From a virus (taxonomy: Duplodnaviria; Heunggongvirae; Uroviricota; Caudoviricetes): DNA of 33,448 nt. The stretch is from IMG/VR virus record IMGVR_UViG_648028025_000008. One strand, written 5' to 3'. Shown here piece after piece: positions 9,001 to 15,000 of the stretch. Positions within the stretch are counted from its first letter, which is position 1, and each line of letters begins with the position of its first letter. Position numbers: made by a program.

Positions 9001-12000
9001 ATGTTAGTAACGGCCTGAGCGTTCCGCCAGTCCGGCGACAACTGGCGGCCCCCAAACGCCCGTCGGGGCCAACGCCAATTGAGTTGCTGAAACAGGAATA
9101 TGAACGCCGGAAAGCGGCTGGTTTTGTTTGAGTTGAGAAGTGATTTTTTACCGGGAGGAAATTTATGGAGACTGTTTTTGACGCACTGAAAGCGATGGGA
9201 AAAGCCACGTCGGTAGAGCTGGCTGCGCGACTTGATATCAGTCGTGAAGAAGTACTGAACGAGCTGTGGGAACTGAAAAAGGCTGGCTTCGTTGATAAAA
9301 GCGTATACACCTGGCGTGTGGCTGATAACAACGTTCAGCAGGAACAGCCAGCGCCAGAAGAAACCACCACGGCAACAGAAGCGAAAATCTCAGAGTGCGA
9401 TTTAACCGCGACGATTGAACAACGCGGACCACAAACGGCGGATGAACTGGCTACGCTGTTCGGTACAACATCCCGCAAAGTTGCTTCAACGCTGGCAATG
9501 GCAATCAGCAAAGGTCGTCTGATTCGCGTAAACCAGAACGGTAAAATTCGTTACTGCATACCAGGTGATAATTTACCAGCAGAGCCGAAAGTTGAATCGG
9601 TAGCGGAAACCGATGGTAAAGCCTTTCCTCAGCCAGCCGGTGTTCGTTACCGGTACAGAAAGATGCAACACAGGAAGATATTAAAACAGAAACTGTGGCG
9701 GACATTGTGCAGTCGCTGCCATCGTTTACTGCAACGCGAGAAGATGATTTGATTTTGCCATCGCTGCATATGGCAAATCGCGAACTGCGTAGGGCGAAGA
9801 ATCATGTCCAGAAGTGGGAGCGAGTCTGCGCCGCGCTGCGGGAGCTGAACAAGCACCGGGATATGGTTGCCGGGATTTGTCGGAAGTCCGGGCAATGAGC
9901 GGATGGTGCAGGCCTGAAATCATGATACTAACAATGAAGGTAAAATGCATCGGCAGTCTGATTGGTCGTAGTGAGGCGGCGGTCAGGATGAAAGCCCAGG
10001 TTAAGGGAATAAGCCTGATTCTGCGGGGTGATTTTCACCAGTCAACAAAATATCCGTAGCGCGATAACGGTCAAAAATTATGGCGCTGACACTTTTGTGC
10101 CACTGGAGATGACTGTACCTAAGTTCAGGGGAGAAGAACACGTCCGGTGGGATGGTCGGGCCAGATTTAAAGGGCAGGTCATGGCTCCAGCCTGTACGCT
10201 GGCAATGGAGGCTGCCTGGCGGGAAATTGATATGGGAACCACGCCACTCAGGGATTTACTGCCGGTCCAGAGAATAAATTCCTGTTACGGTTACACCACT
10301 GTGATCTTGCAAGTGCAGGAAAGTAGGTCTACACGGTAACGCGAGTGCGTGTAACTTTTGATGTCATTCCCGTAGAAACACCGGACAAATTTTCGCTGAC
10401 AGGTCATGCAGAAGGTATAAATCTGCAGATTATGGACAATTACGGATATCCGGCAAGAGCCGGAAAAAGCATGCCGCCTCTAATTCTCAGTGGAAGATGG
10501 ACTTGATTATACTCATTGCATTGTCAGAAATAGTTATCCATTAAAGGCTGGCTATTCCAAACAGGATGTTGATTACAAAAATGTAATCAACATGTAAGGT
10601 TTATACTCTTCAATATGCGTATAATTTTCCTTATTTTGTTGACTTTAAATAACAAGCTATGCACGAGGTAAAGTCGGATAAGTTTATCTGGATGTAATAT
10701 ATATTATTTGTAGTGTTTATAACTTTATTTCATGATAACCAATAAAAGGAGTTTTTTATGAGGAACATAATGGCAGGTTTTTTAATATTCCTGTCTTCTG
10801 CTGCTTATGCTGATATCAATCTGTATGGTCCTGGTGGCCCGCATACAGCCTTGCTTGATGCAGCCAAACTTTATGCCGAAAAAACAGGTATTATAGTGAA
10901 CGTTCATTACGGCCCACAGAACAAATGGAATGAAGATGCCAAAAAAAATGCAGATATCTTGTTTGGCGCATCAGAACAATCTGCTCTGGCTATCATTCGG
11001 GACCATAAAGACAGCTTCAGTGAAAAAGATATTCAGCCTCTTTATCTGCGAAAAAGTATTTTACTGGTAAAGAAAGGTAATCCTAAAAATATCCGGAGTA
11101 TTGACGACCTGACCAGACCTGGGATTGGCGTAATTGTTAATGATGGTGGTGGTACCAGTAATACATCAGGCACTGGCGTCTGGGAAGATATTGCCGGACG
11201 TAAAGGGAATATAGAAACTGTCGCCGCAATCCGAAAAAATATTATTTTATATGCGCCCAATAGCGGAACTGCACGTAAGGCTCTTGAGAATCAGCCTGGA
11301 GCAGATGTCTGGATAACCTGGGCTGACTGGGCAGCCAGTAATCCAGAAATTGGTGATGTCGTGGAAATAGCGCCAGACTACGTGATATGGCGTGATATGA
11401 ACATTACAGTACGTCAGGATGCAAATGATGAAACCCGTCGATTTGCAGAATGGCTACAAACCGATGAAGCGGCGCCTGCATTCAAAAAATATGGCTGGAC
11501 CAGGAAAGGCACTTGACATCCTCGTCCTTCAGGACGTGGATTCTTTTTCCGGATGCCGCGCCAGCGGCATGTAGGGGCAGCTCACAAAACGGAAAAAATT
11601 GTACGCTAAGCCTCGCCAGGTGAACTGAATTCATTCCGATATGGGAATTCCCATATCGGGCGAAAACGGTTTGCTGTAACGGCAGAGTTAAGTAGGATTG
11701 CTGCGGGTGCTTGAGGCTATCTGCCTCGGGCATGAACACCAACGGCAGATAGATAAAAGCCCCACCCGACTATAAATCGAAGTGAGGCCCCTATATGCTC
11801 GTCACATATAGATTGCCTCTTACGGACCGAAAGGTCAAGGAGAAGCAGGCTATGAAGCAGCAAAAGGCGATGTTAATCGCCCTGATCGTCATCTGTTTAA
11901 CCGTCATAGTGACGGCACTGGTAACGAGGAAAGACCTCTGCGAGGTACGAATCCGAACCGGCCAGACGGAGGTCGCTGTCTTCACAGCTTACGAACCTGA

Positions 12001-15000
12001 GGAGTAAGAGACCAGGCGGGGGAGAAATCCCTCGCCACCTCTGATGTGTCAGGCATCCTCAACGCACCCGCACTTAACCCGCTTCGGCGGGTTTTTGTTT
12101 TTATTTTCAACGCGTTTGAAGTTCCGGACGGCGCCGGAATAGAATCAAAAATACTTAAGTAGCGCGCAGGGAGAAGAGGGATGGACCCCGAACAGGGGAG
12201 TGCTATTTATCTGGAAGGATTCTGTTGATGAGAATCGAAGAATTACGTGAAATTTTTAGTGAAGATGGCCTCTATACTGTGCGCGTTGAGAAGGGCGCTA
12301 TTGTCAGCCACTGCCGTATTAAATGTTTACAGTCTCAACAAAGGAAGAGTGGAGCTGCGTTAATTCATTTTGTGGATGGGCTTGTGACGGATGGTTTTAT
12401 TTTGCGTGCAAATGAATTTGTCACATCGTTGCCGTCTCTGAAAGAAGCTGGGATTAAGGCTGGTTTTTCTGCTTTTGAAGATTAGTGAATTCATCTACAA
12501 TTCAGCGCAGGGCTGAACCCCTGTTGAGTAACACTGTGCCACCGGAGAAAGCCGATGGCGCAAAATTCCAGACTACACAATTCTGATAATTCAGCCGTCT
12601 TTGCCAGCAGGCACGGGCGGCGTTCTCATGCATTCAAATCTGACTGGTTCCGGCACGCCCCATGCACTGAAGAACAGGCCGAATGGCTGATTCAGAACTA
12701 CCGCAGACGTGGGTATGAGTTTAGGAAAGCCCTCAGCCTCGATTATCGTCACTGGATAATCTACGTCAGGCTGCCGTACTCCGAGCGCCCACCGCGTCCG
12801 TCCCGCACATTCCAGCAACGCATCTGGAGGTAACGTGCGGGTATTACTTCGACCTGTTCCGGTACCGGAACTTGGGTTGGTGGTCCTTAAACCAGGCCGT
12901 GAATCCATGCAGGTATTCCATAACCCTCGAGTGCTTGTGGAGCCGGAACCGAAAAGCATGCGCGGTCTGCCGTCCGGCATCGTCCCTGCCGTTCGCCAGC
13001 CGCTGGCGGAGGATAAATCATTACTGCCGTTTTTCAGCAATGAGCGTGTGATTCGTGCTGTTGGTGGCGCTGGTGCACTGTCTGACTGGCTGTTGCGTCA
13101 TGTCAAATCCTGCCAGTGGCCTCATGGTGACTATCATCACAGTGAAACCGTTATTCACCGTTATGGTACCGGCGCAATGGTGTTGTGCTGGCACTGCGAC
13201 AACCAGCTGCGTGACCAGACATCCGAATCACTCGAGCAACTTGCTCATCAAAACCTGTCAGCATGGATGATTGACGTCATCGGTCACGCAATAAGCGGTA
13301 CGCAGGAGCGTGAATTATCTCTGGCTGAATTATCCTGGTGGGCGGTCCGCAATCAGGTGGCGGACGCGCTACCGGAAGCGGTATTACGTCGTTCGCTGGG
13401 GTTGCGTGCGGAAAAAATCCGCTCAATGTACCGTGAAAGCGACATCGTACCGGGAGAGCAGACCGCCACCATCATACTGAAGCAGCGCACAAAAAATCTT
13501 GCGCCGCTGCCTCACGCCCACCAGCAAAACCCGCCACAGGAAAAGACGGTGGTCAGCATTGCCGTTGATCCGGAGTCACCGGCTCAGTATCTCCAGCGCC
13601 AGAAACCACAACGGGAAGAGATGCCTGTATACACGCGCTGGGTAAAAACGCAGAAATGCATGACGTGCGGTAATCAGGCAGATGATCCGCATCACATCAT
13701 TGGTCATGGACTGGGAGGGATGGGAACAAAGGCTGATGATTTGTTTGTTATTCCGCTGTGCCGTAAATGCCATAGCGAACTACACGCCGGGGTAAAAGAT
13801 TTTGAAGAAAAACACGGCAGCCAGCTGTTGTTGCTGATTCGTTTTTTAATGCACGCGAGAAATTCGGGTGTCCTGAAGTGGAAAGCATGAATGACTGAAC
13901 GGATAGAATTTGTTTTGCCTTACCCGCCGACGGTGAATACCTACTGGCGACGTCATGGCAATACGTATTTCATCTCGGAAGCCGGAAAGCGTTATCGCCG
14001 TGATGTGGCGCTAATTGTTCGCCAGCAGCGGCTGAAATTAAACCTGTCCGGAAGGCTGGTGATAAAGATTATTGCAGAGCCACCGGATAAGCGCCGTCGT
14101 GACCTGGACAATATCCTGAAAGCACCACTGGATGTGCTGACGCATGCCGGACTTCTCATAGACGACGAGCAGTTTGATGAAATCAATATTGTGCGCGGTC
14201 AGCTCGTTCCTGGTGGGCGGCTGGGGATAAAAATCACAGAACTGGAGTGCGCATGAATAACCACTATTTACAGTTTGTGCGTGAGCAGCTCATTATCGCC
14301 ACCGCTGATTTGAGTGGGGCAACAAAAGGTCAGCTTGAAGCCTGGCAGGAGAATGCCATGTTCGATACAGGGCGTTACAGGCGAAAAAAAATCCGGTACC
14401 GCGATGAAGTGACTGGAAAAATGATAACGCGGGATAATCCACCAATCCCGGGAAAGCAATCGCTGGCGAAGGTGACGTCAATTCCTCTGGTCAGTCCGGT
14501 TGAGTTTTCGACATCATCGTGGCGGCGGGCTGTTCTGTCTCTTGAAGAACATCATAAAGCCTGGTTGTTGTGGTGTTACAGCGGGAGTATTTGTTGGGAA
14601 TATCAGATCGCGATAACACAGTGGGCGTGGAATGAATTTAATACTCAATCCGGTACCAGAAAAATTGCTGGGAAAACGCAGGAACGCCTGAAAAAATTAA
14701 TCTGGCTGGCGGCGCAGGCAGTAAAAGCAGAACTTTTTGGTGGGGAAGGTTATGAATATCAGGAGCTGGCATTACTGGCGGGAGTGACAACTAAAAACTG
14801 GTCCAAAACATTTACTCGTCACTGGGTTGCAATGAAACACATTTTTCACCGACTGGATAGTGAGGCTTTATTATTTGTAATGAGAACACGTTCAAAACAA
14901 AAGGCGGCATTTTCAAAGCAAAGTGTTGCAAAAGTAGATTGAAAGGCATATATTTCATGCAAATCTGATATTTTGCCGATTTTGTACGTGATGGCAAAAG

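Follow-up and report, generated by a model that had tools for sequence, protein, structure and literature searches.

In the hok/sok (parB) locus of plasmid R1, the archetype of its family, closure of the hok mRNA by pairing of tac with fbi is established as a block to translation; mok is read in a different frame from hok, and the Sok RNA is 64 nucleotides (nt) long. RNase III cleavage of the Sok-hok duplex, differential RNA stability and killing upon loss of Sok have been shown for R1 and, in part, for hokW-mokW-sokW of Stx2 phage 933W and Sakai prophage Sp5 (PMC8621323). HokW is toxic, and sokW neutralizes it by way of RNase III and Hfq (Takada et al. 2021, PMC8621323). Upon RecA-dependent induction the sokW RNA vanishes and HokW appears, while deletion of hokW-sokW delays growth arrest and halves phage release (PMC8621323). 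Here we analyse a hokD-type toxin gene and its surroundings in a stretch of 33,448 nt, the IMG/VR virus record IMGVR_UViG_648028025_000008, hereafter the window. We conclude, with a probability of roughly 0.9, that the gene belongs to a complete and autonomous hok/mok/sok type I toxin-antitoxin cassette (about 11670..12100), a moron within the early-right region of a lambdoid prophage of enterohaemorrhagic Escherichia coli (EHEC) located beside ompW ('PPompW').

The window cassette resembles hokW-sokW most closely in having an in-frame mok of 70 codons, a Hok protein of 51 amino acids (aa) and a Sok RNA that starts 8 nt inside mok. Identity is 86% over the whole cassette, the 5' 50 nt, the hok coding sequence and the fbi box being almost identical, and both cassettes reside on lambdoid EHEC prophages. 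Primers YO-349 and YO-351, used on Sp5 (PMC8621323), have exact matches in the window, at 11711..11735 and 11702..11750. The two differ in the Sok segment, where the hairpin of the window is 22 nt shorter and the 5' recognition tail reads GACGAGCAUAUAGG as against GUUCAGCAUGGAUUG in sokW; in the sok promoter, TTGACC-17-CAATCT versus TTGCCT-17-TAACCT; in the C terminus of Hok, ..TAYEPEE versus ..VDYESEK in HokW; and in the terminator. They also occupy different parts of their genomes, the window cassette lying in a nin-like region upstream of rem, ydfU, rusA and Q, whereas hokW of 933W lies beside Ea22-like genes. With hokC(gef)-mokC-sokC of K-12 the window shares the in-frame mok (N terminus MLNTCRVPLTDRKVKEKRA in MokC, MLVTYRLPLTDRKVKEKQA in the window), the TTGACC-17-CAnTCT type of promoter, a short Sok of 55-59 nt and conserved tac, ucb and hok Shine-Dalgarno (SD) elements; unlike the window cassette, hokC is a core-chromosome locus whose 3' region abuts IS186 in K-12, and its Hok differs at several residues. 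The tac/fbi pair, mok, the YUNR loop and a Sok antisense to the mok initiation region are common to the window and R1 (PMC9841398), although R1 hok/sok is plasmid-borne and HokW, a near relative of the window toxin, is only 44% identical to R1 Hok (PMC8621323).

The remaining relative, relB-relE-hokD (relF) of the cryptic K-12 prophage Qin, encodes the same 51-aa Hok and has a related backbone (dicB, DicF, ydfC, rem, ydfU, Q). Its order is relB-relE-hokD-rem-ydfU-ydfT(Q); 71 nt lie between the end of relE and the hok ATG, and hokD comes third in the relBE operon. We find that the window and Qin are 97% identical in DNA from position 11838 rightward and share nothing to its left. The common stretch opens with AGGAGAAGCAGGCU-AUG and takes in the whole hok open reading frame (ORF), the 3' untranslated region, fbi, the terminator and the start of the rem homologue. 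K-12 retains just 14 nt 5' of the hok ATG (11838..11851, blastn); the 3' end of relE and its flank occupy the place of everything further upstream. The hok promoter, tac, the 5' hairpin, the sok gene, the mok SD and ATG, ucb and most of the sok promoter are missing from K-12, the junction at 11838 cutting through the sok -35 hexamer. Given that the 133 nt absent from K-12 (11705..11837) share homology with the hokC, hokB and hokW leaders and with the Rfam model RF01794, the window form is the ancestral, complete one and the K-12 form is truncated. In K-12, relBE has thus replaced the hok leader, the mok start and sok, and the window keeps the ancestral cassette.

The sequence-only reading of this DNA had reported a hokD-type frame with a mok-like extension and a terminator, and no room upstream for relBE. 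These observations hold: the frame matches the Hok family and is identical to K-12 HokD, the extension has the layout of mokC/hokC and mokW/hokW, and only 188 bp separate the stop of the upstream ORF (11516) from the start of the hok mRNA (11705). Remnants of relBE in 11520..11850, which were to overturn that reading, are absent; the sole shared upstream stretch, the 14 nt at 11838..11851, belongs to hok. Searches of the entire 33-kb window by tblastn gave no trace of RelB, RelE, YdfV or FlxA, and a word-7 blastn search of the whole window with 1.1 kb of K-12 DNA upstream of hokD returned nothing beyond those 14 nt. With no similarity to RelB or RelE and with a full hok leader, the locus is not a Qin-type relBE-hokD operon. 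The proposed alignment with Qin thus bore out the absence of relBE from the window, but K-12 fails as the reference, being itself the deviant, truncated form; the interpretation is partly supported, with its polarity reversed. A substrate-binding-protein moron had been thought to sit in place of relBE; the gene in question, paa/adfO, lies outside the cassette, whose left boundary falls at about 11665-11685.

How common is each arrangement? Using 261-bp probes across the relE-hokD junction and, equivalently, across the intact leader-hok junction (at least 80% coverage), we find that, of 5426 complete E. coli genomes, 3725 have the intact junction and 1164 that of relE-hokD, which makes the form lacking relBE the more frequent. 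E. coli E2865 (NZ_AP018808.1) contains both, at 2157742..2158002 and 1751091..1751351, the K-12-type junction being in another prophage, so that truncated and intact hokD coexist in one strain. None of 120 intact-leader loci from IMG/VR has relBE upstream, a count that is no gauge of relBE frequency because the search pattern required the leader. That relBE truncated hokD is already published: according to PMC6379469, citing Ramisetty and Santhosh (2016), an ancestral hokD ORF of ~70 codons was reduced to the present 51 through relBE integration, and PMC12214031, citing Pedersen and Gerdes (1999), counts hokD as one of the loci that genomic rearrangement has inactivated. The kind of cassette, its presence in EHEC prophages and the hokD/gef annotation are likewise known. 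The original finding as stated therefore adds little; its value lies in correcting a K-12-centred expectation, and, since the RefSeq annotation here covers the hok coding sequence alone, mok and Sok are now added.

Within the cassette (Table 1), the hok ORF matches Pfam HOK_GEF (PF01848) with E=2.9e-23 and 81.6 bits (cutoff 22) over model positions 1-42 of 42, and its product is 100% identical to K-12 HokD (tblastn), a protein that is toxic when overexpressed (bioRxiv 10.1101/2025.08.07.668861). The mok ATG occupies a position identical to those annotated for mokC in K-12 and mokW in 933W. Like other members of the family, the locus thus has a mok frame with its own SD overlapping hok, and by analogy translation of hok is probably coupled to it. 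In the predicted fold of the full-length mRNA the mok SD is paired within a hairpin complementary to the Sok terminator. Of 93 unique related loci, 72 have an in-frame mok of 19 codons. In a subset of phage hokD-type cassettes (L008, L013, L028, L042, L050, L075, L086, L105 and L113) mok is out of frame with hok and the 19-codon frame stops close to the first codon of hok, so that even near relatives do not all allow in-frame read-through. Together with the G that comes after it, the Tyr47 codon UAC forms the TadA A-to-I editing motif UACG (11990..11993), and its editing would change Tyr47 to Cys. Such editing is reported at the equivalent position in K-12 hokC, hokD and hokE, reaching about 6% in hokD (PMC12214031).

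Rfam model RF01794, named 'sok', matches the plus strand at 11705..11854 over its full length (positions 1-157) with 103.9 bits (gathering score 59, E=4.8e-24). Given that its last three consensus positions are the hok AUG and that it matches the sense strand, the model describes the leader of the hok mRNA, that is, the complement of Sok. The match marks the hok leader, and the actual Sok gene lies inside the same stretch on the opposite strand. The mRNA 5' end, GGGUGCUUGAGG, coincides with position 1 of the model and with the conserved 5' ends of hokB, hokC and hokW. The putative hok promoter is assigned from position and conservation: its -10 hexamer TAGGAT aligns with TATAAT of hokC, TAGGAT of hokB and TAGAAT of 933W hokW, all of which lie 6-7 nt ahead of the conserved start GGGUGC.

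The 394-nt hok RNA folds with a minimum free energy (MFE) of -166 kcal/mol (z = -7.1), and this fold contains the closure of tac with fbi (RNAduplex -21.5 kcal/mol), so that the long-range 5'-3' pairing that defines hok mRNAs is predicted here as well. In hokB, where tac reads GGGUGCCUGAGA and its partner UCUCA(U)GGCACCC, two compensatory changes preserve the pairing, U7>C with A>G and G12>A with C>U. The fbi box is identical in 26 of 35 related loci examined. Both elements are invariant in the hokD-type set, the search pattern for which fixed tac, and this set is therefore uninformative on tac/fbi covariation; the compensatory changes come only from hokB and a few outliers. The loop of the predicted Sok-target hairpin starts with CUCG, a YUNR (U-turn) motif, reportedly as defined by Franch et al. 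in 1999, and is complementary to Sok nt 1-6. The hairpin is predicted in the full-length and 3'-shortened folds and in most homologues, whose stem sequences differ. In the centroid of the 3'-shortened RNA, GAGGC, containing the mok SD, pairs with GCCUC around this hairpin. The box GCCUCUUAC, invariant in the window, hokC and hokB and with an entropy of 0.04 across 82 loci, is likely to be ucb, by analogy with the R1 scheme (PMC9841398). Rfam matches to isrK (24.9 bits, gathering score 50) and rsmX at 12011..12097 fall below threshold and represent merely the hok 3' hairpin and terminator.

Sok and its promoter, which had not been obvious by eye, emerge from a search of the minus strand. The annotated 5' ends of sokC and sokB (K-12) and of sokW (933W) all align to 11803 on that strand, 8 nt inside mok; by alignment, the 3' ends of sokC and sokB fall at 11749 and that of sokW at 11755. 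The 55-nt sequence, GACGAGCAUAUAGGGGCCUCACUUCGAUUUAUAGUCGGGUGGGGCUUUUAUCUAU, is predicted to fold into a single-stranded 5' tail of 9 nt (GACGAGCAU), a long terminator hairpin and a U-run (-21.4 kcal/mol, z = -4.7). In an alignment of 36 diverse loci, pairing within the hairpin is kept in 97.6% of cells, against 30-47% when the partners are slid, and four pairs show compensatory changes, a count reached in 3 of 500 shuffles; several of these changes are supplied by the short hairpin of the window type. Homology, fold and covariation together argue for a cis-encoded antisense Sok that overlaps the mok initiation region. The hexamers of the candidate sok promoter align with TTGACC-17-CACTCT of sokC and TTGCCT-17-TAACCT of sokW, which suggests that it is active. 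In sokW, as deduced from primers YO-421/YO-422, a 'pro-less' construct in which the -10 TAACCT is changed to GAGCCG unmasks HokW toxicity (PMC8621323).

How might such a cassette operate? The weak promoter would give rise to the ~394-nt hok mRNA, the ends of which are set by homology and by the terminator, and the tac/fbi pairing supported by folding and by the hokB covariation would lock this full-length RNA. By analogy with R1, slow 3' trimming would strip off fbi, and the RNA would refold so that the mok SD and AUG become exposed in the predicted YUNR-loop hairpin. In the family scheme this refolding forms tac/ucb and mok-SD/dcb helices and switches on translation as well as Sok binding. 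Translation of mok would then carry ribosomes into hok, yielding the 51-aa membrane toxin and, because mok is in frame with hok, perhaps an N-terminally extended Hok as well. As in R1 and hokW-sokW, the ~55-nt Sok RNA would bind the target loop through its single-stranded 5' tail, and the duplex would spread over the mok initiation region, blocking translation of mok and hence of hok and presenting a substrate to RNase III. As to the role of the cassette, the analogy with Sp5 hokW-sokW suggests that Sok is lost upon prophage induction and that Hok speeds lysis and phage release; alternatively, the cassette may stabilize the prophage by post-segregational killing. By these analogies the most likely function is membrane damage linked to induction, or prophage stabilization. 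It is plausible that Sok would be lost upon induction through antiterminated early transcription opposing the sok promoter.

Is the cassette active? Several points weigh against a functional, autonomous unit. A consensus promoter scan of 11450..12250 returned no sigma-70 site for hok or sok at threshold, its lone match being an unrelated plus-strand site at 12116..12145, and both promoters are therefore assigned by homology. The sok -10 CAATCT is without the first T found in most paralogues (TAACCT or TAATCT), therefore the output of Sok may be lower. The MFE fold of the 3'-shortened mRNA does not reproduce the textbook tac/ucb helix, tac pairing with a 5'-proximal segment instead. Finally, as summarized in a preprint (bioRxiv 10.1101/2025.08.07.668861), chromosomal hokA, hokB and hokC gave no post-segregational killing, so that an intact sequence is no proof of activity. 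The cassette could thus be a selfish relic, structurally intact and functionally silent like those chromosomal loci, a view consistent with the weakness of both promoters by consensus and with the need of HokD-type toxins for TadA editing of Tyr47 to gain their second cysteine, an editing that in K-12 hokD is as limited as stated above (PMC12214031). We regard this as unlikely, given that all regulatory elements are intact and near-invariant over 82 phage-borne relatives, that compensatory changes have maintained the Sok hairpin, that expressed HokD is toxic (bioRxiv 10.1101/2025.08.07.668861) and that the close paralogue hokW-sokW is active at its native level in the Sp5 lysogen (PMC8621323).

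Somewhat less probable still is that hok is expressed mainly by antiterminated early-right read-through (cro-O-P-...-Q) as a lysis-timing gene, its own promoter and the tac/fbi lock being secondary. Hok is oriented like cro, the replication genes, rusA and Q, the early-right operon, as hokW is with its neighbours in 933W; K-12 hokD, co-transcribed with relBE, offers a parallel; and HokW is seen only after RecA-dependent induction, while the sokW RNA disappears (PMC8621323). Transcription converging on the sok promoter could explain this disappearance. Yet a terminator-like hairpin stands behind paa (11523..11536), hokW mRNA is already there in the uninduced state and shows no increase upon mitomycin C treatment (PMC8621323), and the conserved 5' end, the tac/fbi pairing and the position of the -10 hexamer favour a discrete transcript. 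That a K-12-like relBE-hokD operon secondarily lost relBE by deletion, with paa inserted instead, would agree with the identity of the two Hok proteins and with the collinearity of the 3' flank (rem, ydfU and Q homologues) with Qin. We consider this next to impossible: a deletion cannot create 133 nt homologous to the hokC, hokB and hokW leaders, which refutes it, and the lack of relBE remnants, the cut through the sok -35 hexamer in K-12 and the published view that relBE integrated into hokD all speak against it. An autonomous hok/mok/sok cassette remains the reading that we favour.

A side observation concerns the specificity of such cassettes. Among the 82 phage-borne hokD-type cassettes the sole variable stretch of the transcribed region is 11785..11810, which holds the mok start, mok codons 2-3 and the Sok 5' tail. 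Copies within one genome have near-identical promoters and hairpins and different tails, as in five tandem copies of Photorhabdus luminescens. In seven sets, each from a single genome or a tandem array, variation affects 44 of 140 columns within a 20-column span around the complement of the mok ATG versus 6 of 367 elsewhere, the span having been chosen post hoc and the sets not being independent. This within-genome comparison drew on species-representative genomes and tandem arrays (loci L130, L134, L148, L144/L173/L188, L149/L171, L153/L159, L165/L184 and L206). Arrays of 2-5 cassettes, ~0.5-1 kb apart, occur in Photorhabdus (L130, from P. luminescens DSM 3368, L148, L134 and L206), and three clustered P. 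luminescens loci were noted by Faridani et al. (2006). In comparison with L005 and L130, the Sok hairpin of the window (11756..11790) is 22 nt shorter than in sokW and in most phage copies and almost matches the Photorhabdus type, while the flanking leader and hok coding sequence are sokW/hokD-like; this mosaic suggests exchange of the Sok segment between cassettes.

E. coli genomes contain up to 10 matching places each, and O157 strains are reported to have 13-14 hok genes. Diversifying selection may act on a recognition module in which Sok 5' tail, target loop and mok codons 2-3 coincide (about 11795..11810), keeping co-resident copies orthogonal. The window would then represent one specificity allele, the tail GACGAG with a short Photorhabdus-like hairpin, of a combinatorial set whose alleles are generated by segment exchange; we advance this proposal tentatively, as slightly short of an even chance. 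The same principle of orthogonality is known for Sib/Ibs. Chromosomal Sok RNAs do not repress R1 hok (Le Rhun et al.). A tail-specific pattern for hok/sok was not found described in the literature, in a search that was not exhaustive, and the tail-only difference among co-resident copies may be new; the window cassette provides one data point on the avoidance of cross-talk among multiple hok/sok copies per genome.

Table 1. Features of the hok/mok/sok cassette and of other annotated loci in the window (promoters, transcripts and RNA elements as predicted).
Feature	Position	Strand	Details
hok promoter (putative, weak)	11670..11698	+	-35 TTTGCT/TTGCTG (11670..11676); -10 TAGGAT (11693..11698), 6 nt before the mRNA start
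hok mRNA, full length (predicted)	11705..12098	+	about 394 nt; 5' end GGGUGCUUGAGG, 3' end at the terminator
tac element	11705..11716	+	mRNA nt 1-12, GGGUGCUUGAGG; predicted to pair with fbi
mok Shine-Dalgarno (putative)	11784..11787	+	GAGG, 7 nt 5' of ATG 11795; read from sequence
Sok-target hairpin (predicted)	11791..11811	+	stem CUAUAUG/CAUAUAG, mok AUG in the 5' arm; loop CUCGUCA (11798..11804)
mok reading frame	11795..12007	+	70 codons, in frame with hok; starts 19 codons before the hok ATG
ucb-like box	11815..11823	+	GCCUCUUAC; paired with the hok SD region in predicted folds
hok Shine-Dalgarno	11838..11842	+	AGGAG; by alignment with K-12 Qin hokD, 11838 being the left limit of that homology
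hok toxin gene (hokD-type)	11852..12007	+	51 aa, MKQQKAMLIALIVICLTVIVTALVTRKDLCEVRIRTGQTEVAVFTAYEPEE; RefSeq 'type I toxin-antitoxin system toxin HokD'
fbi element	12057..12069	+	CCUCAA(C)GCACCC; predicted to pair with tac
hok mRNA terminator, intrinsic (predicted)	12076..12103	+	G+C-rich stem-loop 12076..12093, then T-run
Sok antisense RNA (predicted)	11749..11803	-	about 49-55 nt; 5' end 11803, 3' end 11749-11755
sok promoter (putative)	11810..11838	-	-35 TTGACC (11838..11833), 17-nt spacer, -10 CAATCT (11815..11810), 6 nt, +1 G at 11803
DicF	4537..4588	-	Rfam 76.7 bits, above gathering score
paa/adfO	10758..11516	+	AcfC-family virulence-associated adhesin gene; Pfam SBP_bac_11
tRNAs (two), downstream of Q	15138..15210, 15304..15377	+	above Rfam gathering score
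STnc100	16157..16329	+	Rfam 100.8 bits, above gathering score

Over the 701 bp that surround the locus, identity is 100% with E. coli E2865 and 99.6-99.9% with O157:H7 strains. In E2865 the region belongs to a lambdoid prophage integrated beside ompW, in the order int, xis, exo, dicB, repressor, cro, ydaT, replication genes, paa, hokD, rem homologue, DUF968 gene (ydfU), rusA, Q, tRNAs and lysis genes. Identity is 99.8-100% with GenBank phage records that bear the name 'PPompW'; these label the 70-codon ORF 'gef: phage maintenance protein' and paa 'porcine attaching-effacing associated protein Paa / adherence factor AdfO'. Of the complete E. coli genomes, 578 have the paa-hok arrangement, most of them with at least 99% identity; among the 120 IMG/VR loci, only 5 have paa upstream. 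In the 82 phage-borne loci similarity runs from the left boundary given above to just past the terminator, and the usual downstream neighbours are rem, a 92-aa ORF and ydfU. Related cassettes are found on 524 plasmids and across Enterobacterales; the cassette behaves as a mobile moron. Just upstream of paa lies a frameshifted fimbrial-protein pseudogene (10064..10597, RefSeq). Between the paa terminator and the cassette is a perfect 24-bp palindrome, CCGATATGGGAATTCCCATATCGG (11636..11659), exact copies of which occur in paa-containing loci and in one locus without a nearby paa (L079).

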